This document shows positions 8,881 to 30,173 of a DNA stretch of 64,000 bases, piece by piece. The translations under genes and the position numbers were made by a program. Positions within the stretch are counted from its first letter, which is position 1. Each line of letters begins with the position of its first letter. This DNA is from Cyanobacteria bacterium P01_F01_bin.150 (lineage in GTDB: Bacteria > Cyanobacteriota > Cyanobacteriia > CAKZMO01). The notes under the pieces were generated by a model, which was not told where the DNA came from, did no database searches, and saw only the letters and a list, made by a program, of their open reading frames with translations. The stretch spans positions 1-64,000 of the forward strand of contig JBCCYL010000029.1 in the NCBI GenBank assembly GCA_039189765.1, written 5' to 3'.

Positions 8881-9813
8881 CTAGTCCAATCCCTCAAATC
8901 TCCAGGGAACGGGATCAACTGCAGTACCATTCACATACAGTCCCCAGTGAAGGTGGGGACCCGTTGAAGCACCAGTGGAACCGATCGCTCCGATTACTTG
9001 ACCTGCTTCGACAAAATCACCATCTTGGACATCAATGCGGCTGAGATGAATCATAATACTGAGTACACCTTGACCGTGATCAATGCCAATAGTGTTGCCA
9101 TGCAGCTCAAATCCTTCGCTAACGGTCCCTACCAGGCGAATATAACCTGAGGCCGGAGCCACCACTGGAGCTCCGGTTCCTGCGGCATAATCGACACCTC
9201 TGTGGTAATAGTTTTGGGCAAATTCTCCGTTGTAATAGCGGCGGTTTCCATATTCAGAGCTGACTCGGCCACCGCTGGGCCGGAGCATGGGGCCATCCCA
9301 AAATTTCTCAGGACTGAGGATTTTCTTAAATTCAGCGACACGAGCAAATTCATGATCCGTGCCTAAGTTTGAATTTCCAGGGGAAAGTCGGATCCATTGG
9401 GTATGGAAGGAGCGATCGCTCAAATTGACTGACCTTGACTCAGACCCTTCATCGCCATCAATTTGAATGGTTTTTTGACCAGGTGTATCCAAAGGACTCG
9501 TTGGCACCATAGCTCGAAATCGGCCATCAGGAAGGGGAAAGCTTTGGTAAGTATTTTCGCCCATCGTAACCAAAGGAGGATTGACTGTGCCTTGGTTGGG
9601 ACTGATAAAGACAGAAATGGTGTCGCCTAAACGGGGATTTCCAGGCAAAATATCCACGCTGTAAGCATATACACCTGACCCTACCGTAAGAACCAACGCC
9701 AATGTACCAGCTAGAATAGCCATCAAACGGCGACTATGGCGTGCCAAGAGTTGCCGAAATTCAGACTCAAAAGACCAATATCTTGTTCTGGCAGTATGCT
9801 TCGTTTGATTCAT
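8881..9813 (-). CDS. M23 family metallopeptidase
   Basis: HRGVD and GASTGPHLH zinc motifs; N-terminal hydrophobic anchor. Confidence 0.9.
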   Translation of the reverse strand: MNQTKHTARTRYWSFESEFRQLLARHSRRLMAILAGTLALVLTVGSGVYAYSVDILPGNPRLGDTISVFISPNQGTVNPPLVTMGENTYQSFPLPDGRFRAMVPTSPLDTPGQKTIQIDGDEGSESRSVNLSDRSFHTQWIRLSPGNSNLGTDHEFARVAEFKKILSPEKFWDGPMLRPSGGRVSSEYGNRRYYNGEFAQNYYHRGVDYAAGTGAPVVAPASGYIRLVGTVSEGFELHGNTIGIDHGQGVLSIMIHLSRIDVQDGDFVEAGQVIGAIGSTGASTGPHLHWGLYVNGTAVDPVPWRFEGLD

Positions 9814-18060: not shown

Positions 18061-21000
18061 ATGTCCCAAAGTGTAGCCTCCGAAAACGAACGAACTCTGA
18101 AAACACTCTGCCGCACAATTCGTTTAACTAGTCAACGCAGATTTGAACTCATCATTGTACGGTGTAACTATCAAAAACTACAGAAAAGACTGTTATTCCA
18201 GTTGCACAAAAATTGCCCCATTCCTTTTGAGGAATTGGCACTACCAAGAACATCCCAAACCCTATATACGTTAATTGAGACCTCTTATACAGAAAAATGG
18301 CCAGAGGCTCTTTGTGTTTGGGGGTTTGAGGAAGTAGACGATTTAGAGACTCTATTATTAGCGACTAATCAAGTTAGGGAAGAATTTAGAAAAAACTTCA
18401 AATTTCCATTAGTCCTATGGTTAAATGATCAGATTCTAACTGAATTAATTCGGCTTGTTCCTGATTTTTATAGTTGGGCAACGCCGCTATCTTTTAATCT
18501 GTCTAATCAAGAATTAGTGGATTTGATCAAAAGTAGTTCTGATACCTTATTTGAACATGCTTTTAACGCCAGCGATCAGTATCCAGTCAGAAAAACTGTT
18601 TTGGAACTAGCCGTTAATGCCCCTAAGTTGCAAGAGCTTAAAATTGCTAAAAATGAGTTAGAAAATCGAAATTATCCCCTAGAGGCTGAACTACAAGCGA
18701 GTATTAACTTAGCATTAGGGCGTGATTTCTATCGTCGAGATCAATTGGGTAAAGCTGAGGAAAAATACCAACAAAGCCTTGCCTATTGGGCAGATACTCA
18801 ACAAACTCAACGATCGGCTATGGTTTTATTCCACCTCGGTCTTTGTTATTGGCGTAAAGCCTATCTTGAACGATTAGCGCCGGAAATGTGTTGGAAATTA
18901 GCTAAAAAGTGCTTTGCAGATTGCTTAGAGAGTTTAGAGAGTTTAGACGCAGATCAATCGCAACGGCTTGTTGCTAATTTTATTGGCCAACTCGGTGAGG
19001 TATTGCAGCAGCTTGGCGAATGGGATGCACTCCAAACGTTAGCAGAAAATTCTTTAAGGTTACACCAAAAATTTTCCCATCCAGCAAGATTAGCCAGAGA
19101 TTGGGGATTTCTGGCATCGATTGCTCTGCATCACTCTGACTGGGACAAAACGTATCTCAATGCCCAAAAAGCGCTGCAAGCTTTGGAGGACTCAAGAGAA
19201 GGCGATCGTCAACGTAAAGGACTATATTTATGGCTCTTGGCCCAGGCTCAGAAACAGCTTGGGGCAATTGATGGGGCGATCGATAGCTTGGAAGCTGCAA
19301 AGAAAACGGGCCAGTTCCAAAATGATCCGCTCATTTATATTCAAATTTTAAAGGCATTACGTGATCTTTATTTTCAACAAGGTCGCTATATCGAGGCGTT
19401 TGATGTTAAACAAGAACAACAAGCGGTTGAAAGCCAGTATGGGTACCGGGCTTTTATTGGAGCTAGTCGCTTACGGCCATTACGGGACGTTGGATTAGCC
19501 TTACTAGCGAGTGAACCATCGGAGGCGATCGCCCAAGAATTATCGGTTTCAGTCCGCCATCAGGACATCAGCAGTTTGTTGGAACGACTGGCACGCCCTA
19601 ATTATAAATTGACCATTATTCACGGTCAGTCTGGAGTTGGCAAAAGTTCTATGATGAGCGCGGGTTTGGTGCCTACGCTCAAGCACAAAATTATGAATAG
19701 TCGTGACGTTGTCCCCGTTTATTGCCAGTTTTATGGCAATTGGGAAGAGCACCTATGCCAATGTATGAATATAAGCCTAGAACCCTATCCAGATGCACGG
19801 AGAAAAGAATTAAAATCGTCGCTTGATATTCTCCACCAAATCCGTCGTAATGATACTCAAAACCTCTTGACAGTATTAATTTTTGATCAGTTTGAAGAAT
19901 TTTTTATCAACTGCGAGACACCAAATAAGCGTAGACCTTTCTTTGATTTTTTAAACCAGTGCTTTCAACTTCCTTTTATCAAAGTTTTACTAGTCCTTCG
20001 AGAAGACTACTTACACTATCTACTAGAATATGAACGGCTTCCTAGCAATAGCTATATTACTCAAAATATTCTCAAGCAAACAAATCGTTTTGAACTGATC
20101 AATTTTTCTGAAGAAGATACAAAAGAGATTATCACTAGATTAACGGAACGATCAAGTATTACTTGGGAACCTCAACTCGTTGATGCTGTTGTTCATGATT
20201 TAGCTCAAGAGCAAGGAAGTATCCGCCCTATTGAATTACAAATTGTTGGTGCTCAACTTCAAGCTGAAAATATTAATACTCTCTCTGCCTATGAAGACAA
20301 GGGAACAAAAGATAAATTAGTTCAGCGCTATTTAGAAACAGTTGTTGAAGACTGTGGCCCTGAAAACAGGAAAGCGGCTAATTTAATATTATATCTCCTG
20401 TTAGTAGATAAGGATACACGTCCACAACGAACAAAAGAAGAAATTGGAATAGAGCTAAAAAGATTAGCTATTGACTTGATTGAAGAATCAAATCGTCTAG
20501 ATTTAGTGCTCCAAATATTTGTCAAATCAGGTTTAGTTTTCCTTCTTCCAGAGACTCCTTCCAGTAGATATCAACTTGTTCATGATTATCTAGCTACCTT
20601 TATTCGGCGTCAGCAGCAACCTGATATCAATGCACGGATTGCACATTTAGAACGTGAGAAGAAAAATCTTAAACAGGTTATCACTGCATTAGAACAAGAA
20701 CAGGAACAACGTTTTAAGACGGAAGAAGAACTTAATGCAACTGCTAAAGAACTTACTGTAACAGCACAAGAACTGAAGAAAACGGCACATACTAATAAAG
20801 AGACTAAGAAGAGGCTAGCAGTTTGGTCAGGAGTTTTGGGAGTGGCTTTTTTAGTTGTATCAGCTCTAGGATTAACGGCCTACTTTAGGTTGCAACAAAC
20901 ACGTACGGAGTTTGATCTAGAACAAAAAAGTTGGGAAGCTTTACAACAGTTTCACACTCAACCACTACAAGGCTTAATTGCAGCCATGAATGTGGGTATT

Positions 21001-23001
21001 CAATTTCAAGAATTTAAAGACAAAAATAGTGAAACGACCCTTACGACTCCCATCTTTGCGCTACACAAAATGCTGAGCAATATCCGGTTACAGAACACGC
21101 TCGCTGCACATGATGCTGAAATCTATGCAGTAGCTTTCAATGACAGTAGCAATCATTATCTTGTAACAGGTTCACAAGATACAACAGCTCGACTGTGGAA
21201 TTTAAAGACAGGTGATAGTATTCCTTTAGAGGGGCACGAGAAAGCAGTTCTTGATGTGAGCTTTAGCCCTCAGGGTCAGCATATTGCGACGGCATCCGCA
21301 GATGGAACGGTTAAATTTTGGAACTATGATGGCACAATCCATCATGAGTGCTCAATGCAGGATGATGTTTTGAGTATTGATTTCAAAAAAAATGGAGACT
21401 TTATAGCTGCTATTGGAAACGGGAAACTCCAACTTCGAAAACCAGAATGTGAACTAATTTCTGAAGGCATCACAGAGTCAAAAACACCTGTCTTTAGTAT
21501 AGACTTTAGTGATGACGAAAGCATGCTTGTAGCAGGCGATGAAAAAGGCAGTGTTAGTATCTGGCAAGTGAGTCAAAATGCTCTTAGCCAACTCAAAAGT
21601 TTAAACCTCCATAATCAGTCGGTGGAAGATGTAGCATTCAGTCCTGGCGACAGCAGTGTTGTAACAGTTTCCTCTGACGGTACAGGTAATATTTGGCGTC
21701 TTCAAGATGATGACATTTTGAACTTTGAGGCAAAAGGTGCCCCAATAAGAAGTATTACTTCAATATCTTCTCAGCGTAGCCGAGAAGATATTGTAACTTC
21801 TTCAGATGACAACATGGCTAGGCTATGGGATCTTCAAGGACAAGAAAAATTTAGCTTTAAAGGTCATAGGAATGTCGTTAGAGATGTTGCCTTTGATTCA
21901 ACAACACAAACTTTAGCAACAGTTTCTGATGATAGATCGGTTAAACTGTGGAACTTAAATAATAATCTATTTAGACCTAGAAGAATCAACCTTCTTCACG
22001 AGTCCATTGATGCTTCTAATATTAATGTTTCTAGTGTCAGCTATGATAATAATCTGTTGGCAGCATCTTCTGGGCACGGTACTATTTATATTTTAGATTT
22101 CAGAAGCAATACTATTCTAGCTAGTTTTTCACCTTATATAAATCAAAACAGAGATGAAAAACACCACATACTTGACCTTAAGTTTCATCCAAGAAATTAC
22201 ACACTTGTGACTGCTTCAAATTATGGTCAAGTGATTCTATGGTCACAACATGGGGAAAAAATTAAGGAACTCCAAAAATCTTATTACCCTAATTTTCAAG
22301 ATACAAAGTTAGCATTTGATTCTACTGGTACTCAGGTAGCAATTGCAAATTCAGAAGGTACAGTTCGTATTGTAAACCTTGAGGGTGAAAGCCTTGACCA
22401 ACAGAAGCTCCATAATGAGAAAATCACAGATATTAAATTCAACAATGATGGTGGTATTATCGTTACAGCATCCGTAGATCAAACAGCCTGTTTTTGGCAA
22501 CTGGATACATTACCTGTCTGCAGTGAAAAATATGGAAGTCAGCTTGTTAGTGTTGCTATTAATCCAGAAAATACTTTGGTTATTTCTGATTTAGAAGGGA
22601 CAATTAATATTTGGCACCCGACTAAACAGCAGTCATCAAATACCGATGATATTGTGTCCTCCAGCACCCGCTCTATCAACGACATTATTTTCGATAAAAG
22701 CGGTAGATTTGCAACTGCCTCAGCCGATGGTTCCGCAGCTCTATGGTCAGGAGAGGGTAAACCTCTAGCAGAATTTCAAGGACATCGGACACCCGTCCAG
22801 AACATCTTTTTTACTAATGATGCTCAAGAACTATTGACGATTTCTAGTGATGGTCAAATTCGTCAATGGGAAATTCAAAGTCTTGATGATCTTTTAAACG
22901 AAGGATGTGAGTGGCTCTCCAATTACTTAAGATTTAGGAAAAATAGCAAGCCTACAGAGGAGCAAAAAATAGTTAATTTTTGCTCCTCCATCTCAGATTA
23001 A
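18061..23001 (+). CDS. Large STAND (nSTAND1-like) NTPase: N-terminal degenerate NTPase-like region, TPR, NTPase, coiled coil, TM helix, WD40 repeats
   Basis: GQSGVGKSS Walker A, LIFDQFEEFF Walker B, YQLVHDYL; hydrophobic LAVWSGVLGVAFLVVSALGL; many GH...W[DN] repeats. Confidence 0.85.
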   Translation: MSQSVASENERTLKTLCRTIRLTSQRRFELIIVRCNYQKLQKRLLFQLHKNCPIPFEELALPRTSQTLYTLIETSYTEKWPEALCVWGFEEVDDLETLLLATNQVREEFRKNFKFPLVLWLNDQILTELIRLVPDFYSWATPLSFNLSNQELVDLIKSSSDTLFEHAFNASDQYPVRKTVLELAVNAPKLQELKIAKNELENRNYPLEAELQASINLALGRDFYRRDQLGKAEEKYQQSLAYWADTQQTQRSAMVLFHLGLCYWRKAYLERLAPEMCWKLAKKCFADCLESLESLDADQSQRLVANFIGQLGEVLQQLGEWDALQTLAENSLRLHQKFSHPARLARDWGFLASIALHHSDWDKTYLNAQKALQALEDSREGDRQRKGLYLWLLAQAQKQLGAIDGAIDSLEAAKKTGQFQNDPLIYIQILKALRDLYFQQGRYIEAFDVKQEQQAVESQYGYRAFIGASRLRPLRDVGLALLASEPSEAIAQELSVSVRHQDISSLLERLARPNYKLTIIHGQSGVGKSSMMSAGLVPTLKHKIMNSRDVVPVYCQFYGNWEEHLCQCMNISLEPYPDARRKELKSSLDILHQIRRNDTQNLLTVLIFDQFEEFFINCETPNKRRPFFDFLNQCFQLPFIKVLLVLREDYLHYLLEYERLPSNSYITQNILKQTNRFELINFSEEDTKEIITRLTERSSITWEPQLVDAVVHDLAQEQGSIRPIELQIVGAQLQAENINTLSAYEDKGTKDKLVQRYLETVVEDCGPENRKAANLILYLLLVDKDTRPQRTKEEIGIELKRLAIDLIEESNRLDLVLQIFVKSGLVFLLPETPSSRYQLVHDYLATFIRRQQQPDINARIAHLEREKKNLKQVITALEQEQEQRFKTEEELNATAKELTVTAQELKKTAHTNKETKKRLAVWSGVLGVAFLVVSALGLTAYFRLQQTRTEFDLEQKSWEALQQFHTQPLQGLIAAMNVGIQFQEFKDKNSETTLTTPIFALHKMLSNIRLQNTLAAHDAEIYAVAFNDSSNHYLVTGSQDTTARLWNLKTGDSIPLEGHEKAVLDVSFSPQGQHIATASADGTVKFWNYDGTIHHECSMQDDVLSIDFKKNGDFIAAIGNGKLQLRKPECELISEGITESKTPVFSIDFSDDESMLVAGDEKGSVSIWQVSQNALSQLKSLNLHNQSVEDVAFSPGDSSVVTVSSDGTGNIWRLQDDDILNFEAKGAPIRSITSISSQRSREDIVTSSDDNMARLWDLQGQEKFSFKGHRNVVRDVAFDSTTQTLATVSDDRSVKLWNLNNNLFRPRRINLLHESIDASNINVSSVSYDNNLLAASSGHGTIYILDFRSNTILASFSPYINQNRDEKHHILDLKFHPRNYTLVTASNYGQVILWSQHGEKIKELQKSYYPNFQDTKLAFDSTGTQVAIANSEGTVRIVNLEGESLDQQKLHNEKITDIKFNNDGGIIVTASVDQTACFWQLDTLPVCSEKYGSQLVSVAINPENTLVISDLEGTINIWHPTKQQSSNTDDIVSSSTRSINDIIFDKSGRFATASADGSAALWSGEGKPLAEFQGHRTPVQNIFFTNDAQELLTISSDGQIRQWEIQSLDDLLNEGCEWLSNYLRFRKNSKPTEEQKIVNFCSSISD

Positions 23002-23018
23002 ATGTAGCGTTATAATCT

Positions 23019-23288
23019 CTACCAATTAGACCAATTGTTCCAATTAGACCAGTTTCCCCAGTCAAACCTTCGAGATTGAGGTAGCACTTTACCCTTGACA
23101 TAATCTAAATCCCAACCATAGCCTAATGATTGTTTTCTTACAGTCTCGACCCTTTCTCTAACCGAAGTATTTGATTTGACTGTGGCACTTTCTGCCCTAG
23201 AATTGAAGATATTAGTAATAGGGTAAAGTACAATTTGCGAAATTAAAATGGTGCTAAGGAGTCTGTAAATTTTATTGATTCTAATCAT
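23019..23288 (-). CDS. RiPP precursor peptide B (GrrA/OscA-like), core WGNWSNWNNWSNW
   Basis: Hydrophobic N-terminus, leader VRERVETVR, C-terminal tandem WxN; ATG at 23288 preferred (ORF extends to 23312). Confidence 0.8.
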   Translation of the reverse strand: MIRINKIYRLLSTILISQIVLYPITNIFNSRAESATVKSNTSVRERVETVRKQSLGYGWDLDYVKGKVLPQSRRFDWGNWSNWNNWSNW

Positions 23289-23781
23289 GGGGGACAGTTT
23301 GAATAACGACAATATTGATTGCGATACATTTTAATTATCCATATAATACAGTTAGTACAAGACGTGAATGTGACACTAGAGCAAACTGCCTAAATTTTCT
23401 CTAGAGTTAGCCTGAAGGCTATTGATTGAAGGAAAACATTGGCTATCTTACAGTAGTCAAAACTAAAATTGTCACACAAACAGAACATAGAGCTTGTCAA
23501 GTTGAAATTAACCAACAAGGCCATCAAAATGTCATCCTGAATCTAGTATTGGATAATTCTCATATACACATATACGAAAATCTACTAGCCTTACAGGAAA
23601 TTACTCTAACTTTTCATGAACTCCCTCATTCTTTTATTAGTTCGCAAGAACTATTTATGGATTTGGATAGTAGCCCCTAGGAAAAAACTTGTAAAATACT
23701 AAGAATTTTCTACCAATATCAAACACCTTTATCATTACATACTAAATAGCTTTCATCGCTTATTTGCCCCTGAAAAATAGA

Positions 23782-23826
23782 AGAAACGCCAGCCTCTTCA
23801 AAAATGTACTCAAAGCTGACGTTTCT
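23782..23826. terminator. Imperfect hairpin between the two precursor genes
   Basis: AGAAACGCCAGC ... GCTGACGTTTCT. Confidence 0.3.
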
Positions 23827-24049
23827 AATAAATTTGGTAGCTCAGCCTGGAAAAAAGTAATAATACCTTGTCTCAGTCAAGAGCTTTGACAACTTGATGG
23901 ATTGCCTCAAGTGCGATCGCTTTTCACCTAAATTAGTTCGCATAAACAGATTTAGGCACAAACAAAACTAAAACGGTCCACACAATATCAGAGTTCTAGT
24001 GCTAATCTGAGCAATCAATTAATGGTTTATTTGTTCTAGTGAAATAGAA

Positions 24050-24388
24050 TTACCAATTATCCCAGTTGCTCCAGTTAGCCCAGTTAGCCCAGTTGTTCCA
24101 TGCGGCTTTAACTATTCGCTCTGAGTTCAGCGCTAGTGAGTAGTTTTCTGATGCAGGAATATGGTGTCCCTGCGATAAATCGTTGGCCTTATTAAACTGA
24201 GAGCTATCATTATTTTTACGAACTCGGTTAATACGTGATTTCAACTCCTGTTCTTGATGTTCTAGAGAATATTCGCTTCGGCTATAGGCAAGTGTAGCAA
24301 CATTGTCAGTCAGTATCAGAGATACAGCGGCCACGCAAACAGTTAAAAACGGTGCGAAAAGTCCTGTTAGAGAAGCTTTTTGGTTCAT
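24050..24388 (-). CDS. RiPP precursor peptide A (GrrA/OscA-like), core WNNWANWANWSNWDNW
   Basis: Hydrophobic N-terminus, leader LKSRINRVR, five tandem WxN triplets then W and stop; downstream of the rSAM gene on the same strand. Confidence 0.85.
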   Translation of the reverse strand: MNQKASLTGLFAPFLTVCVAAVSLILTDNVATLAYSRSEYSLEHQEQELKSRINRVRKNNDSSQFNKANDLSQGHHIPASENYSLALNSERIVKAAWNNWANWANWSNWDNW

Positions 24389-24440
24389 GAGAAATCAATG
24401 GGGGACGAAATGGTTACTATTGCTCTTTCAACCTTAGGAA

Positions 24441-24470
24441 TTGTGGTAAATCCTCAAGGATTTACCACAA
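24441..24470. promoter_or_regulatory. Perfect 14-bp inverted repeat upstream of precursor A
   Basis: TTGTGGTAAATCCT-CA-AGGATTTACCACAA. Confidence 0.5.
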
Positions 24471-24583
24471 ACTTAAAACTTGAAGGAGCACTACATTAAT
24501 ATTCGCTTATGCAATTATAGTTGCGAACGAAAGTACCGCCCTCAGTGACTTGTCTCACACGTAAGCGGTTCGAGTATTTAAGG

Positions 24584-25480
24584 TTACAGTTTAAAGTGTC
24601 CCCTGATTGTTAGCTGAACATCGGAGTGATTTTGGTCTAAGGTAGACCCCTCGTGAAGAATATTCTCTGTGGGAGCAATGTAGGCTTCTCCGGGAGAAAT
24701 GCGTACTTTTATTACTGGATAGTTTGGGTAACGTTTTGCGAAGGCATTCTTCAACGTCAGCGGAGAGACTTTGCTTAAACTGAGGCGATTTTTATAGAAC
24801 AGATTGCGTCCTTTCCACTGCACTTGTCTCGATATTTTTAAACTATTTTCTGGGAGGAACTCTGGATGACGCAACACTATTAACATGTCTATTAGGGTGA
24901 GGTTGATGAAGAGGAAGTGGCGATCGCTCTCCCCCAAATTAATGCAAATCCGATTGGTTGATTGATGACGATATTGCAGAGGTAACCGATCCCAACTGTC
25001 CAGATGCAGGCCAATGTAGTGGCCTGCTGTCGGATTGATTGTAACAGTTGGTAAATTGGGCCAGCTAATGCCAATACCCGCTAGAGTTGGCTCTCCTTTA
25101 TTGCAGTGGGATTTGAAAAACGTCAAGATCGGTTCAGTTGCTTTCCCATACTCCGGTGTGCTGAGCTGGTGATTATCGTCGGGAGTCAGTTGACTGATAT
25201 TCAATTGACGTAGAGGAGCCAAAATATGGTCTGGAACCGAGAAGATTCCGACAGTCCGACTGTAATCACTGGCTTGACGATGGGTGATTAACGTTTTGGA
25301 TTGTTCTGATGATAATTCTTGCCATGTATCTTGTGGAATATAGGCATCTTTGGAAAAGGCGAGATTAGGGAAGTGGTCGGCAGTAGGTTGTTGGATGCCT
25401 GAATTAATCCATACACGAGATTTAGATACGTCCAACGTGGAATCAAGGTACAGTTGAACGCTATCCAGAAGCTGAGTCAT
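24584..25480 (-). CDS. Putative Fe(II)/2-oxoglutarate-dependent oxygenase-like protein (RiPP tailoring candidate)
   Basis: GLHLDSWD (HxD), ENILHEGS (distal His), QLTIRGHF (Arg); ATG at 25480, 46 nt after the rSAM stop. Confidence 0.6.
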   Translation of the reverse strand: MTQLLDSVQLYLDSTLDVSKSRVWINSGIQQPTADHFPNLAFSKDAYIPQDTWQELSSEQSKTLITHRQASDYSRTVGIFSVPDHILAPLRQLNISQLTPDDNHQLSTPEYGKATEPILTFFKSHCNKGEPTLAGIGISWPNLPTVTINPTAGHYIGLHLDSWDRLPLQYRHQSTNRICINLGESDRHFLFINLTLIDMLIVLRHPEFLPENSLKISRQVQWKGRNLFYKNRLSLSKVSPLTLKNAFAKRYPNYPVIKVRISPGEAYIAPTENILHEGSTLDQNHSDVQLTIRGHFKL

Positions 25481-25526
25481 AATGCAACCATTAACGAAGG
25501 GGACTAGCACTACATTCTTTGCCCCA

Positions 25527-26747
25527 TCAGACTGTTGCTTTACTCTTTTCCATTGATGGGGCTGACGAAGGTACCTGAATTGCAAAGGTTTCTTCTAAAT
25601 CCGCAAGAACAATGTCCGTGAGGATTTTCTTCGTATATTTACAATACATTGTTTCGGAAGAATTAAAGGAGCCGTTTTCAAAATACTTATTGGACGGTGC
25701 GCCTCCGCCACACACGGAGAAGTACTCACATGTTTTTTTACACAACGACACTCCAGCCTGGATATCTCGGTTCATGTGCTTGAATTTTGGAGTTTGACAC
25801 ACCTTATCAAAGGATTGATTTACGATATTTCCTAAAATAAAATCGCCATAGACCTCACTGTCCATAGATAGAAGTTCAGGCGAAAATGTTGAAAAATCAC
25901 CATTATAAGCAATATTAAGCATGGTGAAGGGCGTAAACTGGCCTCGTTGAATATTGGTTTTGCCCAAAATGGATTGTTTGGTTTCCTCTAGTTCTCTAAT
26001 TTGCAGTACGCCAGGGTTTTCTTTGGTGAGGGCCAACATGCGTATCATAAACGCCTTATATTTTTGTGCGCTATCGTCTGACGACAACGAAGATGCTTGG
26101 TGTGTGCCTTCCATTTCATCGATATTGAAGCCCACTTGCTGAATATTTTGATCTACAAAGAACTGAAACAGCTCATCAGGATAATCAAGACCATCACGAG
26201 TTAGGACGGCAATAACGTGGAAAGGGATATTGTGCTGTTGCAGTAAACGAACCCCGCGCATGGTGTACTTATAACTGCCCAATCCTCTGCGGGTTAAGCG
26301 ATAGGCATCATGTAAAAATTCTGGACCATCTAGACTCACACCAATACGGATGCCGTAGGTTTTGATTAAATCACACCATTGATCATTGATGAGTGTTGCA
26401 TTTGTTTGGATCGCGTGGGTAATGAGGCGTAACCCCATTGGAGAGTTCTGATTCAGTTGTTCGATCTTTTCAAACGTTGTTTGGTAGAACTTGACAGGCA
26501 TGGTTAAGGGTTCCCCTGCGTGCCAAACCACTGTAAATTCTGAATCTAAAAACTGACTCTGAAACAGATGGGTAAAGATAGGTTCAAGCAAGTCTAGAGA
26601 AAATTCGTGCTTGAGATGGCGATCGGGTAAATAACAATAACTACAGTTCAGGTTACAAAAGGTGGTGGGTTGAATGATAACCAGTTGGATTGGACCATAG
26701 TTTTTGCGACCATGAAACCATGTGGAGACGGTATCAAGCAAACTCAT
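25527..26747 (-). CDS. grrM: Cyclophane-forming radical SAM/SPASM maturase, GrrM/OscB family
   Basis: LVIIQPTTFCNLNCSYCYLP, WHAGEPL, GVSLDGP.FLHD, FSTFSPELL, CKKTCEYFSVCGGGAPSNKYFENG...TETMYC-like SPASM motif; ATG at 26747. Confidence 0.9.
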   Translation of the reverse strand: MSLLDTVSTWFHGRKNYGPIQLVIIQPTTFCNLNCSYCYLPDRHLKHEFSLDLLEPIFTHLFQSQFLDSEFTVVWHAGEPLTMPVKFYQTTFEKIEQLNQNSPMGLRLITHAIQTNATLINDQWCDLIKTYGIRIGVSLDGPEFLHDAYRLTRRGLGSYKYTMRGVRLLQQHNIPFHVIAVLTRDGLDYPDELFQFFVDQNIQQVGFNIDEMEGTHQASSLSSDDSAQKYKAFMIRMLALTKENPGVLQIRELEETKQSILGKTNIQRGQFTPFTMLNIAYNGDFSTFSPELLSMDSEVYGDFILGNIVNQSFDKVCQTPKFKHMNRDIQAGVSLCKKTCEYFSVCGGGAPSNKYFENGSFNSSETMYCKYTKKILTDIVLADLEETFAIQVPSSAPSMEKSKATV

Positions 26748-26869
26748 AGGATTGGGGCGGTGTAAAGGACAACAAGGTAATATGTTATTCCTCTCTACAG
26801 TGTCATAGTTCTGTCCTCCTGAACACAAAACTATGACAGTTATTATCTTTATAATAGTATGCGAGCTTT

Positions 26870-27379
26870 TTACAGATTAAGACGTTTTGTCATCCAAAGG
26901 GATTGGGGTTTGTAATCGAGCTGATGATACATGCTGAGGGCGATGTAATTATCTGTGAAGACTTGTAGGCTAATTTTGCGATCGCCCCTTTTCATCGCCC
27001 ATTGTTCAGCTTTGTCCATCAACGCAGTGCCGATCCCTTGTCGGCGATACTTAGGATAGACGTATAGCAGAAAAATGTAAGCGTGGCGATCGCCTTCAAT
27101 CTGATCAATCGCATCCCCCAACCACAAACAGCCTACTGCCGTTTGACATGAGGACCGCGCAGATAATGAAAGAGTCGGTATTGGTGAAGGTGACTGGATG
27201 TACACCCACCATAGAGGCGTATCACTAGATAAGTACTGATCGACCGTTTGGACAAGATGAGTGACGGGTTGTTTAGGATGAAGCTCTTGATAGGTCTTCT
27301 GCATGACTTTTACCAGAGACGCCCGATCCAAACTAGAGCCTCTGGTAATCTCATAACCTGGACATAATTCGTTAGCCAT
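26870..27379 (-). CDS. GNAT family N-acetyltransferase
   Basis: YVYPKYRRQGIGTALM acetyl-CoA motif; ATG at 27379. Confidence 0.88.
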   Translation of the reverse strand: MANELCPGYEITRGSSLDRASLVKVMQKTYQELHPKQPVTHLVQTVDQYLSSDTPLWWVYIQSPSPIPTLSLSARSSCQTAVGCLWLGDAIDQIEGDRHAYIFLLYVYPKYRRQGIGTALMDKAEQWAMKRGDRKISLQVFTDNYIALSMYHQLDYKPQSLWMTKRLNL

Positions 27380-27629
27380 TCTGAACTGCGTCTTTGTCCG
27401 ATGCGGGTGGAAAAGAGGAAAACTGAGCAATGGCCGTAGAGAAGGGAATGCTTGCCTGGGTAACACCAGAATTTGAATCACTACCATGCTTCATGGTCGT
27501 TGGTTCTTCTATCGGTGCGGGCGCAGCTAAATCACTGGGTAAAAAGATTCGAGCACTCACTGCAATCATCGCAACCAAGAAAATTAATACAATAAAGAAT
27601 GGCGCGACGTACTGACGAATAAAGGACAT
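27372..27629 (-). CDS. Small single-TM cyanobacterial protein
   Basis: RQYVAPFFIVLIFLVAMIAVSARIFLPSD; overlaps the GNAT start by 8 bp. Confidence 0.7.
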   Translation of the reverse strand: MSFIRQYVAPFFIVLIFLVAMIAVSARIFLPSDLAAPAPIEEPTTMKHGSDSNSGVTQASIPFSTAIAQFSSFPPASDKDAVQNG

Positions 27630-27877
27630 ATCTCTAACCTACTAGTTGAACAACCAAAAAAGTGGGCTATTGCTCGAAGCCTGAATATCAGCGCTGTTGC
27701 TGAATACACCCTGATTATAGTACCAAGAAACTGCCCTATATTTTCTGGTTAGGCTCAAATATACTAGCTGTCTGGAGTTTTGCTGAAAGGTGAGTTGTAA
27801 CTCAATGGTCGTTCAAAATTCAGAGCGCTATAAAATGCTAGAGGGCGATCGCGTTTATATAGCCCTGATACCTGGTT

Positions 27878-29458
27878 ATGGGACAAAGAGAAAAAACATT
27901 GGCGAAGAAGAAAAGGCACAATAAAACGGCTTTAAGCAATATGACTGTTCAGGCCTATTCAACTCCCTCTGCTTCAAAACAGGAAAAATTTAACCGGGGA
28001 CTATGGCGACAGGGTGACATCATTGAAGTAACAGTTGATGCGCTGAGTAACCGTGGTGATGGGGTTGGTCGCTGGATTGACTCAAATGCTCAAGCCAGTG
28101 TTGGGACTGATGCCGATGCTGATGGACAGAAAGGTCATCGAGTCGTCTTTATTCCTGATGCCGTACCGGGCGATCGCCTGCGTGTTCGGCTAGTCCGCGT
28201 TAAGCCATCCTACGCCCACGGCAAATTAGTGAATATTGTCAAACCTTCGTCCGAACGGATTAAGCCGAGCTGTATTGTGGCGGACAAATGTGGTGGATGT
28301 CAGTGGCAGTCCGTGAATTACGAGCGGCAGCTTCTGGCCAAATATCATGAGGTTTGTCAGTGCCTAGAACGGATTGGTGGATTTGATGCATCGTTAGTAG
28401 AACCTGTGGAAGCGTCTACCCATCTTGGCTATCGGAATAAAGTCTCCTATCCGTTAAGGCAAGCGGAGTCCAAGGCCAAGGTCCAGGCCGGATATTATCA
28501 AAAAGGCAGTCATAAACTCGTTAACCTTAACCAGTGCCCTGTCCAAGATCAGCGGTTGAATACATTTCTGACCGATCTAAAAGAAGATATTCACACCCGC
28601 AACTGGTCTATTTACGATGAAAAACGTCATCAATATTCCCTGCGTCACTTGTCTTTAAGGGTCGGGAGACGCACTGGAGAAGTCTTGCTGACCCTCGTTT
28701 CCCGTGATAAATGCCTCAATGGTCTTGAAGAACAGGCTAAGCGGTGGCTGCAAATCTACCCTAACCTGGCAGGTGTCTGTCTGAACATAAATGATCAGCG
28801 TACAAATGCCATCTTTGGTCAGAAGACATCTACGATTGCAGGACGGGGCTATATCGAGGAAATTTTTGCAGATATCTCGTTTCAGATCCATTCCACCACC
28901 TTTTTTCAAGTTAATACGGAGCAAGCGGAGAAACTACTGCGGCTTGTACAAAAAAAACTCGCGCTGACTGGAACCGAAAAAATTGTTGATGCCTACTGCG
29001 GCATTGGGACAATGACGCTTCCTCTAGCTCATCAAACCGGGCGGATGATAGGCATTGAATTTCACCCCGCTTCGATTACTCAAGCCTTAAAAAATGCCGC
29101 ATCTAATAACATTCATAACGTTGGTTTTCATGTGGGGAAAACAGAATTACTGTTGCCTCGGCTCAGGGACTTAGCTCCAGGATTTGGTATTCCCGATGTG
29201 GTGATGCTTGATCCGCCTCGCAAGGGCTGCGATCGCGCTGTGTTAGAGACGTTGCGATCGCTCCGTCCCTCCCGTATTGTTTACATTAGCTGTAATCCAG
29301 CGACCTTGGCCCGCGATCTGAAAATTCTATGTGCTCAGGAATCGATGGGTTCAGAATCTCCGTCCCAAGCTTACTATCAGTTAGAGTCGGTATACCCCTT
29401 TGATTTCTTTCCCCAAACGTCCCACGTTGAATCCGTTGCGTTTCTTGCTTTGGCATAA
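27878..29458 (+). CDS. rlmD: 23S rRNA (uracil-1939-C5)-methyltransferase
   Basis: TRAM domain, CGGCQWQ Fe-S motif, FFQVN, DAYCGIG, LDPPRKG, YISCNPATLARD, FPQTSHVE. Confidence 0.95.
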   Translation: MGQREKTLAKKKRHNKTALSNMTVQAYSTPSASKQEKFNRGLWRQGDIIEVTVDALSNRGDGVGRWIDSNAQASVGTDADADGQKGHRVVFIPDAVPGDRLRVRLVRVKPSYAHGKLVNIVKPSSERIKPSCIVADKCGGCQWQSVNYERQLLAKYHEVCQCLERIGGFDASLVEPVEASTHLGYRNKVSYPLRQAESKAKVQAGYYQKGSHKLVNLNQCPVQDQRLNTFLTDLKEDIHTRNWSIYDEKRHQYSLRHLSLRVGRRTGEVLLTLVSRDKCLNGLEEQAKRWLQIYPNLAGVCLNINDQRTNAIFGQKTSTIAGRGYIEEIFADISFQIHSTTFFQVNTEQAEKLLRLVQKKLALTGTEKIVDAYCGIGTMTLPLAHQTGRMIGIEFHPASITQALKNAASNNIHNVGFHVGKTELLLPRLRDLAPGFGIPDVVMLDPPRKGCDRAVLETLRSLRPSRIVYISCNPATLARDLKILCAQESMGSESPSQAYYQLESVYPFDFFPQTSHVESVAFLALA

Positions 29459-29459
29459 C

Positions 29460-30173
29460 TTAACGCATGCCGAGATAAAGTTCGCCGACTTTTGGATGAT
29501 TTAATAGCTCGGGTCCCGGACCTTCAAAGCGATCGCGTCCCGTATCTAGTACCACTCCCCGATGAGCCATGGCCAGAGCTTTGCGAGCATTTTGCTCCAC
29601 TAGCATAATCGCAGTTCCTGTTTGATTAATGTGTTGGATATGCTCCAATGTTTGGGTGACTAATGTAGGAGAAAGGGCTGCTGAGGGTTCATCCAAAATA
29701 AGCAAATCTGGATCGAGCATCAGCGCTCGGCCCATCGCTAACATTTGTCTTTCGCCCCCGGATAAGGTGCCTGCCTGTTGTCTTCGCCGTTCCAATAGCA
29801 CTGGAAACACATCAAAAATTGTTTGTTTAAGAGAGTTGAGGGGCTGGTTGAGGATAAACGCACCCATTTCCAAATTTTCTTCCACCGATAGGGATGGGAA
29901 AACATTGGAAATTTGAGGAACGTAGCATAGGCCCAGGGGCACGATTTGATTGGGTTTAAGACCTGCGATCGCCCTGCCTTTGAACAAAATATCCCCTGTA
30001 TGTGGTGTTAGCAACCCAAAAATTGTTTTGGCTAAGGTTGACTTCCCTGCTCCGTTGGGACCGATCACTGCGACGAGCTCGCCTGGTCCTATGCAAAAGT
30101 TGATGCCCTGTAAAATATCTAATCCAGGCACATATCCGGCTTGGACATCAACAACTTCTAACAAAGGTTCCAT
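29460..30173 (-). CDS. Branched-chain/neutral amino acid ABC transporter ATP-binding protein (LivF/NatE-like)
   Basis: GPNGAGKST, LSGGERQMLAMGRALM, LDEPS, LVEQN. Confidence 0.9.
   Translation of the reverse strand: MEPLLEVVDVQAGYVPGLDILQGINFCIGPGELVAVIGPNGAGKSTLAKTIFGLLTPHTGDILFKGRAIAGLKPNQIVPLGLCYVPQISNVFPSLSVEENLEMGAFILNQPLNSLKQTIFDVFPVLLERRRQQAGTLSGGERQMLAMGRALMLDPDLLILDEPSAALSPTLVTQTLEHIQHINQTGTAIMLVEQNARKALAMAHRGVVLDTGRDRFEGPGPELLNHPKVGELYLGMR

Follow-up and report, generated by a model that had tools for sequence, protein, structure and literature searches.

Four co-oriented genes on the minus strand of a 64,000-nucleotide stretch of DNA from Cyanobacteria bacterium P01_F01_bin.150 (contig JBCCYL010000029.1, positions 1 to 64,000; hereafter the window) probably make up a triceptide-type cluster of the GrrM/OscB branch, that is, a cluster for peptides that ribosomes synthesize and that are then modified post-translationally (RiPPs). 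They code for a radical S-adenosylmethionine (SAM) enzyme, a 298-aa oxygenase and two precursor peptides, A and B, and their products would be two Sec-exported peptides with 5 and 4 back-to-back Trp-Asn rings that also undergo an oxygenase step. The analysis establishes the family of the radical SAM enzyme, the architecture and conservation of the precursors, the fold of the oxygenase together with its homology to MicC and its intact site, and a link between the two enzymes through conserved adjacency and gene fusion. The gene arrangement agrees with a preliminary description of the locus made from the DNA letters alone: the listing of open reading frames (ORFs) bears out the four genes and the 406-aa radical SAM enzyme read from the ATG at 26747.

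The GrrM/OscB-type radical SAM enzyme and its two predicted precursor peptides

The radical SAM gene (25527..26747, minus strand) codes for 406 aa from this ATG, and an in-frame TTG further upstream, at 26828, would extend the product to 433 aa (25527-26828). The protein scored 529.2 bits against TIGR04261, the GrrM/OscB model (cut-off 310), over model positions 1-363 of 363, and 529.6 bits in the whole-genome profile search; the Pfam domains Radical_SAM and SPASM both matched it as well. The CX3CX2C motif is present at C31, C35 and C38, as are five further family cysteines (C125, C336, C340, C346, and C369), and all eight are conserved in 98-100% of the sequences in an alignment of 51 family members. 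More than 4264 proteins matched the enzyme at E <=1e-80, the nearest being 60-65% identical, and NCBI names several of the close homologues (about 60% identity) GrrM/OscB. Readings of the enzyme as AmcB (NF041718; 318.3 bits, cut-off 425) and as an anaerobic sulfatase maturase (TIGR03942; 179.3 bits, cut-off 349.45) were rejected, and in the NCBIfam scan it fell below every cut-off of the DynA, YhhB, FxsB, and XyeB models. On these profile scores the enzyme is a clear member of GrrM/OscB and not a sulfatase maturase. The family named in the preliminary description thus holds, and the grouping with sulfatase maturases, which that description had given as grounds for abandoning it, did not occur. 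OscB is described as linking Trp-C7 to the Cβ of Asn or Asp, and Phe-C4 to the Cβ of Asn (PMC11002830). By analogy, the ring bond in the peptides of the window would likely join Trp-C7 to Asn-Cβ.

Precursor A (24050..24388, minus strand; 112 aa) carries the leader motif KSRINRVRK and the core WNN-WAN-WAN-WSN-WDN-W at 24053-24100, and its C-terminal sequence is ...AAWNNWANWANWSNWDNW. Precursor B (23019..23288, minus strand) has 89 aa from its ATG, or 97 aa from a TTG at 23312 (23019-23312), with the leader motif RERVETVRK, the core WGN-WSN-WNN-WSN-W at 23022-23060 and the C-terminal sequence ...FDWGNWSNWNNWSNW. Five contiguous WxN units in A and four in B are each closed by one extra W, as the preliminary description had correctly quoted. 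Both ORFs lie 0.2-2.5 kb downstream of the radical SAM gene on the same strand.

The pattern of these ORFs is not due to chance. In a six-frame scan of the genome (10.64 Mb in 350 contigs, with the window as C29:1-64000) for three or more W-x-[NDST] units in a row, 11 matches were found, among which only precursors A and B look genuine: each opens with a start codon, has a leader and stops immediately behind the repeat. The remaining 9, on contigs C5, C6, C78, C205, and C245, have no leader-plus-core layout. The only radical SAM gene of the genome above the TIGR04261 cut-off lies at this locus, within 2.5 kb of both precursors, and the 298-aa oxygenase likewise has its single genome copy here. 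Among the matches outside the locus, C5 (about 72800-73580) and C6 (about 690-1420) hold long W-rich repeat frames (WVNWIDWID..., WWSWWS...). One match of the genome to TIGR04260, the precursor model, lies on contig C172; it has two stop codons and was set aside.

An alignment of 20 precursors, 4 of them classical, revealed a common layout, which is read from the loci in this analysis and is not a published definition. It consists of a hydrophobic N-terminus, an ExR[LIV]xx[LIV]R-type motif, a variable linker, and aromatic-x-Asn units that often end in a closing aromatic residue. The N-terminus is basic and then hydrophobic, often with a small-x-small end (EAFA/GSS in locus L006, PVQA/ATPP in L004). 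The leader motifs of classical GRRM precursors, ESRLSRLST and ENRISRIAE, are of the same type as those of A and B. The precursors of the window contain few Gly residues: the C-terminal half holds 1 in A and 4 in B, compared with 13-35 in 15 of 16 spaced Gly-rich precursors and 9 in the other one (L118:6990-7343). The last Gly of precursor A stands 17 residues before the first core Trp, and none follows in the core or after it. In precursor B the core has one Gly, in the middle of the first WGN unit. No homologue of precursor A beyond itself was found by word-based search, and precursor B matched no NCBIfam model. Because the layout is shared but TIGR04260 is missed and the units lack Gly spacers, A and B are divergent relatives of GrrA/OscA1 and not members by the curated model.

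The MicC-like oxygenase and its active site

The oxygenase gene (24584..25480, minus strand) codes for 298 aa from the ATG at 25480, and the full ORF spans 24584-25585 (333 aa). The 298-aa product is identical to a protein already in the searched collection (P0001). It matched no Pfam or NCBIfam family, and a word-based search gave 178 relatives, with every displayed name being 'hypothetical' or 'uncharacterized'. In an alignment of 30 sequences, G157, H159, D161, W163, N176, R177, N181, R187, E265-A266-Y267, A269-P270-T271, and H276 are invariant. The HxD...H...R pattern pointed out in the preliminary description is therefore real, its H159, D161, and H276 being invariant in the family.

Structure and sequence both bear out the putative Fe/2-oxoglutarate (2OG) oxygenase of that description. 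The AlphaFold2 model (predicted local distance difference test, pLDDT, 91.3) shows a double-stranded beta-helix of the Fe/2OG type. The top five Foldseek matches were to KdoO, an Fe/α-ketoglutarate dioxygenase (E 1e-5, TM 0.34-0.37), with FIH, OrfP, and JMJD5 after them; a second structure aligner also gave KdoO (Z 10.7, 199 residues at a root mean square deviation of 5.2 A), and each of its 50 listed entries was an Fe/2OG dioxygenase. The sequence comparison was decisive: in a phmmer search, residues 4-296 matched MicC (PDB 9VKM, chain residues 22-293) with E 3.3e-29 and 105 bits. The family profile had one match among solved chains, again 9VKM (E 2.9e-59, chain residues 22-293 of 295).

MicC was formerly a hypothetical protein; its gene lies in mic, the triceptide cluster of minviopeptin (Guo et al., PNAS 2026; PMC12912966). 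That article describes a KdoO-like fold with the triad H160-D162-H253 and with α-ketoglutarate held by R188 and K266; R188 binds the C5 carboxylate of α-ketoglutarate and the K266A variant is inactive. Acting on a cyclophane-bearing triceptide precursor, MicC hydroxylates the Cα of one Gly, which leads to a break of the N-Cα bond, release of a seven-residue follower and an amide end; it is strictly Gly-specific and needs earlier ADP-ribosylation by MicD. The same article notes that MicC homologues often accompany enzymes of the radical SAM type among Actinomycetota and Bacteroidota and may have undergone diversification (PMC12912966).

In the alignment with MicC, H159/D161/H276 and R187 of the window's protein correspond to H160/D162/H253 and R188. 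H159, D161, H276, R177, and R187 are kept in all 85 of the MicC-like copies compared, 84 from the 78 loci described below and the one in the window. A Lys at the position of MicC Lys266 occurs in 20 of the 23 copies classed as having no radical SAM gene in the flank, a class in which the window's copy was counted, and in no other copy. R293, four residues past the Gln289 that stands at this position in the window's protein, may substitute as the α-ketoglutarate anchor. Residues 203-240 include an extra stretch that has no counterpart in the MicC alignment, and there the block means of the model are 56-73. A complex prediction of the oxygenase with residues 37-112 of precursor A scored 0.00 against a mark of 0.32, and counts neither way.

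Distribution of MicC-like genes and place of the locus among GrrM/OscB loci

MicC-like genes are widespread and frequently linked to radical SAM genes. Searched against 1.84 billion representatives, the MicC-like profile matched 1575 proteins at E <=1e-3, these being clusters at 50% identity, and 936 at E <=1e-30. A pattern search with one genome per species yielded 78 loci with a MicC-like gene, and in 56 of these, from several phyla, a radical SAM gene lay within the fetched flank (tblastn E <=1e-5). The partner enzyme scored at least 230 bits against that of the window in 28 loci, was truncated but 44-82% identical in 3 (L001, L034, and L042) and was weaker, at 60-120 bits, in 25. When 16 partner enzymes were scanned with NCBIfam, GrrM/OscB was over its cut-off in 7 (L003, L006, L020, L054, L055, L075, and L078) and AmcB in 1 (L035), while 5 were DynA/darobactin-like and 3 YhhB/FxsB-like at sub-threshold scores. 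A GrrM/OscB-like enzyme stands beside a MicC-like gene in 31 loci, and in 20 of them an ORF with three or more W-x-[NDST] units in a row is present as well. Outside the cyanobacteria, the trio of radical SAM gene, MicC-like gene and poly-WxN precursor was found in Acidobacteriaceae, Saprospiraceae, Chitinophagaceae, and an Ignavibacteriota genome. The preliminary description had considered the architecture different from the usual Gly-rich GRRM locus. This proved right, as seen in the contiguous units, the few Gly residues and the presence of the oxygenase; the neighbourhood survey also showed that the locus is not unique, since the trio recurs in cyanobacteria, Acidobacteriota, Bacteroidota, and Ignavibacteriota.

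The two enzymes are also found in one polypeptide. Long proteins with a C-terminal MicC-like domain were seen among the 150 matches listed, and 5 of the 8 that were scanned have an N-terminal radical SAM part. Two of these fusions exceed the TIGR04261 cut-off (P0343 with 390 bits and P0242 with 370 bits) and P0281 falls just under it (308 bits); in P0254 and P0278 the radical SAM part is DynA- or sulfatase-maturase-like, and the other 3 of the 8 had no NCBIfam match. Such fusions are strong evidence that both enzymes act on the same peptide. P0242 contains two matched MicC-like stretches, and the same type of fusion occurs in long ORFs of L031, L049, and L076. An oxygen-sensitive and an oxygen-dependent enzyme are joined in these proteins.

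Several other arrangements were observed around MicC-like genes. Two such genes per locus occur in L005, L031, L049, L060, L068, and L076, beside daropeptide-like or YhhB-like radical SAM genes. A second small 2OG-Fe(II) oxygenase (PF13640, prolyl-hydroxylase-like) adjoins the radical SAM or MicC-like gene in three clusters, from a cyanobacterium, a Chitinophagaceae genome and Variovorax (L006:6879-7460, L055:8376-8933, and L078:7334-8101); the window has no such gene. In 22 of the 78 loci, mostly from Microcoleus and other Oscillatoriales, no radical SAM gene was found within a flank of up to 6 kb a side. They include L010, L013, L015, L017, L019, L021-L023, L026-L030, L032, L033, L038, L039, and L065; all but two of the 22 come from Microcoleus, Oscillatoriales or Kamptonema, and the Lys equivalent to Lys266 occurs in these 20 only.

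Among 301 sampled cyanobacterial genomes, 28 have a GrrM/OscB enzyme over the cut-off, the lowest-scoring of which is the one in the window. With 1.5-kb flanks, a MicC-like gene was present in 2 of 29 such loci, L110 (the same locus as L003) and L112, and in ten loci refetched with 8-kb flanks neither tblastn nor the family hidden Markov model found one. A quick maximum-likelihood tree was built from 55 radical SAM enzymes, after L002, L009, L045, L051, L064, L088, and L106 had been dropped for stops or length. In this tree 31 cyanobacterial rows group together (Shimodaira-Hasegawa-like approximate likelihood ratio test, SH-aLRT, 99), with the cyanobacterial L040 (Caldora) outside. They comprise the window's group of 10 rows (SH-aLRT 92), 6 of them MicC-linked when the duplicate L003/L110 is counted, and a classical group of 21 rows (support 89) with no MicC-like gene within 1.5 kb. 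The oxygenase is therefore an accessory of the window's branch and not a requirement, because the unlinked members of this group keep spacer-less cores. In locus L115, the ORF at 9488-9811 (minus strand) encodes eleven contiguous WEN units followed by WDNYC; the adjacent radical SAM enzyme is 57% identical to that of the window, and no MicC-like gene lies within 8 kb.

The OscA/OscB triceptide pathway of cyanobacteria (also GrrA/GrrM or GRRM; models TIGR04260 and TIGR04261) was reportedly described by Nguyen and co-workers in Nature Chemistry in 2020. The locus in the window resembles it in the radical SAM family, in its cyanobacterial host, and in precursors with a hydrophobic N-terminus, an ExR[LIV]xx[LIV]R-type motif and C-terminal aromatic-x-Asn units that are often closed by an aromatic residue. 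In contrast to the classical system, the window's precursors miss TIGR04260, their units stand back to back, all their aromatic residues are Trp and the middle residues are mostly polar. The window's radical SAM enzyme is 41-52% identical to classical OscB-type enzymes, in a sister sub-branch, and the MicC-like oxygenase next to it is absent from the 21 classical rows (within 1.5 kb) and from 6 classical loci (within 8 kb).

The oxygenase shares with MicC full-length homology, the KdoO-like fold, the triad and Arg, and a neighbouring cyclophane-forming radical SAM enzyme. The window differs from the mic cluster in that its radical SAM enzyme is GrrM/OscB-type and not PasB/daropeptide-like, no ADP-ribosyltransferase or ABC transporter is present, precursor A has no Gly-led follower peptide and the Lys266 position is Gln289. 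YhhB/YhhC, a triceptide pathway of a radical SAM enzyme and an Asp β-hydroxylase (cited in PMC12186529), is a precedent for pairing a cyclophane-forming radical SAM enzyme with an Fe/2OG hydroxylase, by which a core residue gains a hydroxyl; on the YhhB model the window's enzyme reached only 157 bits (cut-off 445). No GrrM/OscB cluster with a MicC-type oxygenase or contiguous WxN cores was found in the literature, in which subscription papers were thinly covered and the cluster figures S52/S53 of PMC12912966 were unreadable images.

Proposed pathway, rival explanations and neighbourhood

In the proposed pathway, the two precursors would be translated with a Sec-signal-like N-terminus, a short leader motif and a C-terminal contiguous Trp-x-Asn core. 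The cytoplasmic radical SAM enzyme would then take a hydrogen from the β-carbon of the third residue and join this carbon to the indole, giving one cyclophane per WxN unit with a loss of 2 Da each; the chances that every WxN unit is cyclised may be about even. The MicC-like Fe(II)/α-ketoglutarate oxygenase would carry out a second, O2-dependent oxidation of the ring-bearing peptide. It would have to act in the cytoplasm, since it lacks a signal peptide and in some cases forms one protein with the radical SAM enzyme, and a leader-cleaving role is unlikely because leader removal in the cytoplasm would also remove the export signal. The product would leave by the general Sec route, which would explain the missing transporter, protease and GrrP.

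Sec export is the simplest route and a reasonably likely one, given the signal-like N-termini and the absence of these three functions, which the preliminary description had already remarked upon. GrrP (TIGR04262) is an orphan protein resembling periplasmic binding proteins; its best match in the genome reached 65.7 bits (cut-off 190) and lies on another contig, and no dedicated transporter or protease gene was found within about 12 kb either side of the cluster. Similarly, no recurrent transporter appeared among 40 neighbouring ORFs scanned in 8 related loci. Anaerobic sulfatase maturases, which are related to the radical SAM enzyme of the window, also modify Sec substrates before export.

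The reaction of the oxygenase can be proposed only tentatively. The MicC reaction is not simply transferable, because precursor A has no Gly in or after the core, the core Gly of B is confined to the first WGN and there is no MicD-like gene: the cluster contains no further ORF of at least 120 aa, and no ADP-ribosyltransferase (ART) domain was found within about 12 kb. A possible reaction is hydroxylation of a side chain or of a Cα that is kept as +16 Da, for example on polar residues in the middle position. Of the 190 aromatic-x-[ND] units in 23 MicC-linked precursors, 115 (61%) have D, N, S, T or E in the middle, compared with 21 of 156 (13%) in 18 unlinked precursors, 12 of these 21 coming from locus L115; the precursors are from few lineages, hence this comparison is a lead rather than a test. 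Rather doubtful is Cα hydroxylation followed by scission at a residue other than Gly, such as one that takes off the final Trp and leaves an Asn amide, and a reaction of some other kind is doubtful to a similar degree. The preliminary description was right about the type of oxygenase; its suggestion that the peptides are possibly further oxidised may not mean a simple addition of 16 Da, since MicC cleaves a backbone bond.

Several observations weigh against the proposed pathway. Both precursors missed TIGR04260 (cut-off 31 bits) even at E <=10 in the search that the preliminary description had called for; the precursor of the nearest relative, L001 from a Leptolyngbya strain, scores 20.5 bits on this model. 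The equivalent of the MicC Lys266 is Gln289 in the window's oxygenase, and precursor A lacks Gly in and after its core while MicC's own reaction needs one. The sub-branch of the window's radical SAM enzyme is only moderately supported (SH-aLRT 92 in a quick search), and 4 of its 10 rows have no MicC-like gene within 8 kb. In addition, the hydrophobic N-termini of the precursors, with about 20 residues in A, are rather long to be Sec signals and are possible membrane anchors.

These points bear on two rival explanations in particular. The oxygenase might act exactly as MicC does, with hydroxylation at a Gly Cα, a break of the N-Cα bond, a C-terminal amide and release of a follower. The full-length homology and the same triad and Arg fit this reading, and many non-cyanobacterial relatives have precursors that end in W-G-N-Y or W-G-N-F, where a cut at the Gly of the terminal WGN would give an ...N-W amide end, near the ...N-W that the window encodes directly. 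However, A offers no usable Gly and B only the central one of its first WGN unit, Gln stands in place of Lys266, and MicC is both strictly Gly-specific and MicD-dependent (PMC12912966), with no other enzyme gene in the locus; we therefore consider an identical reaction unlikely. It is somewhat less improbable that the hydrophobic N-terminus is an uncleaved membrane anchor, so that the ring-bearing Trp-rich tail would be displayed on the outer side of the cytoplasmic or the thylakoid membrane. The hydrophobic stretch of A has the length of a transmembrane helix, a long part of about 50-75 residues follows the signal and the locus codes for no leader protease, but in most relatives the n-h-c regions are of the textbook kind, with small residues at -3/-1 (EAFA/GSS, PVQA/ATPP), which speaks against an anchor.

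Two further alternatives concern the extent of the cluster and the nature of the WxN ORFs. A GNAT acetyltransferase gene (26870..27487, minus strand; Pfam Acetyltransf_1, E 1.2e-17) lies upstream, co-oriented and 41-122 bp from the radical SAM gene depending on the start, and its product might N-acetylate the peptide as HaaN does in the His-Ala-Ala triceptide pathway. Its weak match to HaaN (18.9 bits, cut-off 250) amounts to ordinary GNAT similarity, and none of the 40 ORFs scanned around the 8 related loci codes for such an enzyme, so its membership in the cluster is doubtful and a role in the pathway quite improbable. Finally, the WxN ORFs could be ordinary secreted repeat proteins or non-coding repeats, with the radical SAM enzyme having another substrate. 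The core DNA of each precursor is indeed a 9-bp tandem repeat. Against this, the same type of ORF, with a conserved leader motif and variable DNA, stands beside the radical SAM gene in cyanobacteria, Acidobacteriota, Bacteroidota, and Ignavibacteriota, and A and B are the sole genuine-looking ORFs of this kind in 10.6 Mb, which makes such an explanation hardly credible. Two exported, ring-bearing peptides from a GrrM/OscB-type cluster thus remain the preferred reading of the locus.

The non-coding parts of the locus contain a few structural elements. The spacer between the oxygenase gene and precursor A (24389-24583, 195 nt) folds at -56 kcal/mol (z -4.88), and 0 of 200 shuffles fold as well. 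A hairpin in this spacer (24442..24469, minus strand) has 13 pairs in the predicted fold and no U-tract after it; it might serve in processing or stabilisation and thereby set how much precursor transcript there is relative to enzyme transcript. A terminator-like hairpin (23780..23799, minus strand), found by the consensus scan only, lies about 250 nt downstream of precursor A. That scan gave 17 promoters against 11.4 in shuffled DNA and 5 terminators against 3.6, which is not above expectation, and an Rfam scan of 22500-28000 gave no match at E <=0.1.

The neighbouring genes within about 12 kb code for a thioredoxin-reductase fusion, a GT2 glycosyltransferase, CbiC, a P-loop nucleoside triphosphatase (NTPase), an nSTAND1/WD40 protein, an rRNA/tRNA uracil methyltransferase, a lone ABC ATPase, a HisS-like protein, a DnaJ/TPR protein, an inositol monophosphatase, and a nuclease. 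The lone ABC ATPase gene (29460-30173) and the nSTAND/WD40 gene were rejected as cluster members, as nothing links either of them to the cluster beyond one shared neighbour in L002. The nSTAND1 NTPase/WD40 gene is very large and lies convergent, directly past the last precursor gene, both in the window (18061-23001, plus strand) and in L002 (6902-11461, minus strand; Elainellaceae). This shared neighbour may go back to common ancestry of the region, or it may be a coincidence.

Triceptides, ribosomal peptides with strained rings, form a young class for which few tailoring enzymes are known. The locus is not a new kind of system, as the NCBI pipeline already names close homologues of its radical SAM enzyme (about 60% identity) GrrM/OscB. 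It pairs the best-known type of cyanobacterial cyclophane synthase with the MicC oxygenase family, a large family (1575 clusters at 50% identity) that was characterised in 2026 for one reaction only. Because precursor A cannot undergo that reaction, the locus is a compact four-gene test case for the other chemistry of the family. It also bears on whether Trp-Asn rings can follow one another without spacers, and on whether such peptides use Sec instead of a dedicated exporter. We tentatively suggest that the MicC-like oxygenase of the spacer-less WxN branch may have a reaction other than Gly scission, either hydroxylation of the polar middle residues or removal of the closing aromatic residue, and that, together with the radical SAM enzyme, it may build rod-like peptides for export by Sec, 'tryptophan ladders' with between 4 and more than 10 contiguous cyclophanes. 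If this is true, the tryptophan ladders would be a product class conserved from cyanobacteria to Acidobacteriota and Bacteroidota.

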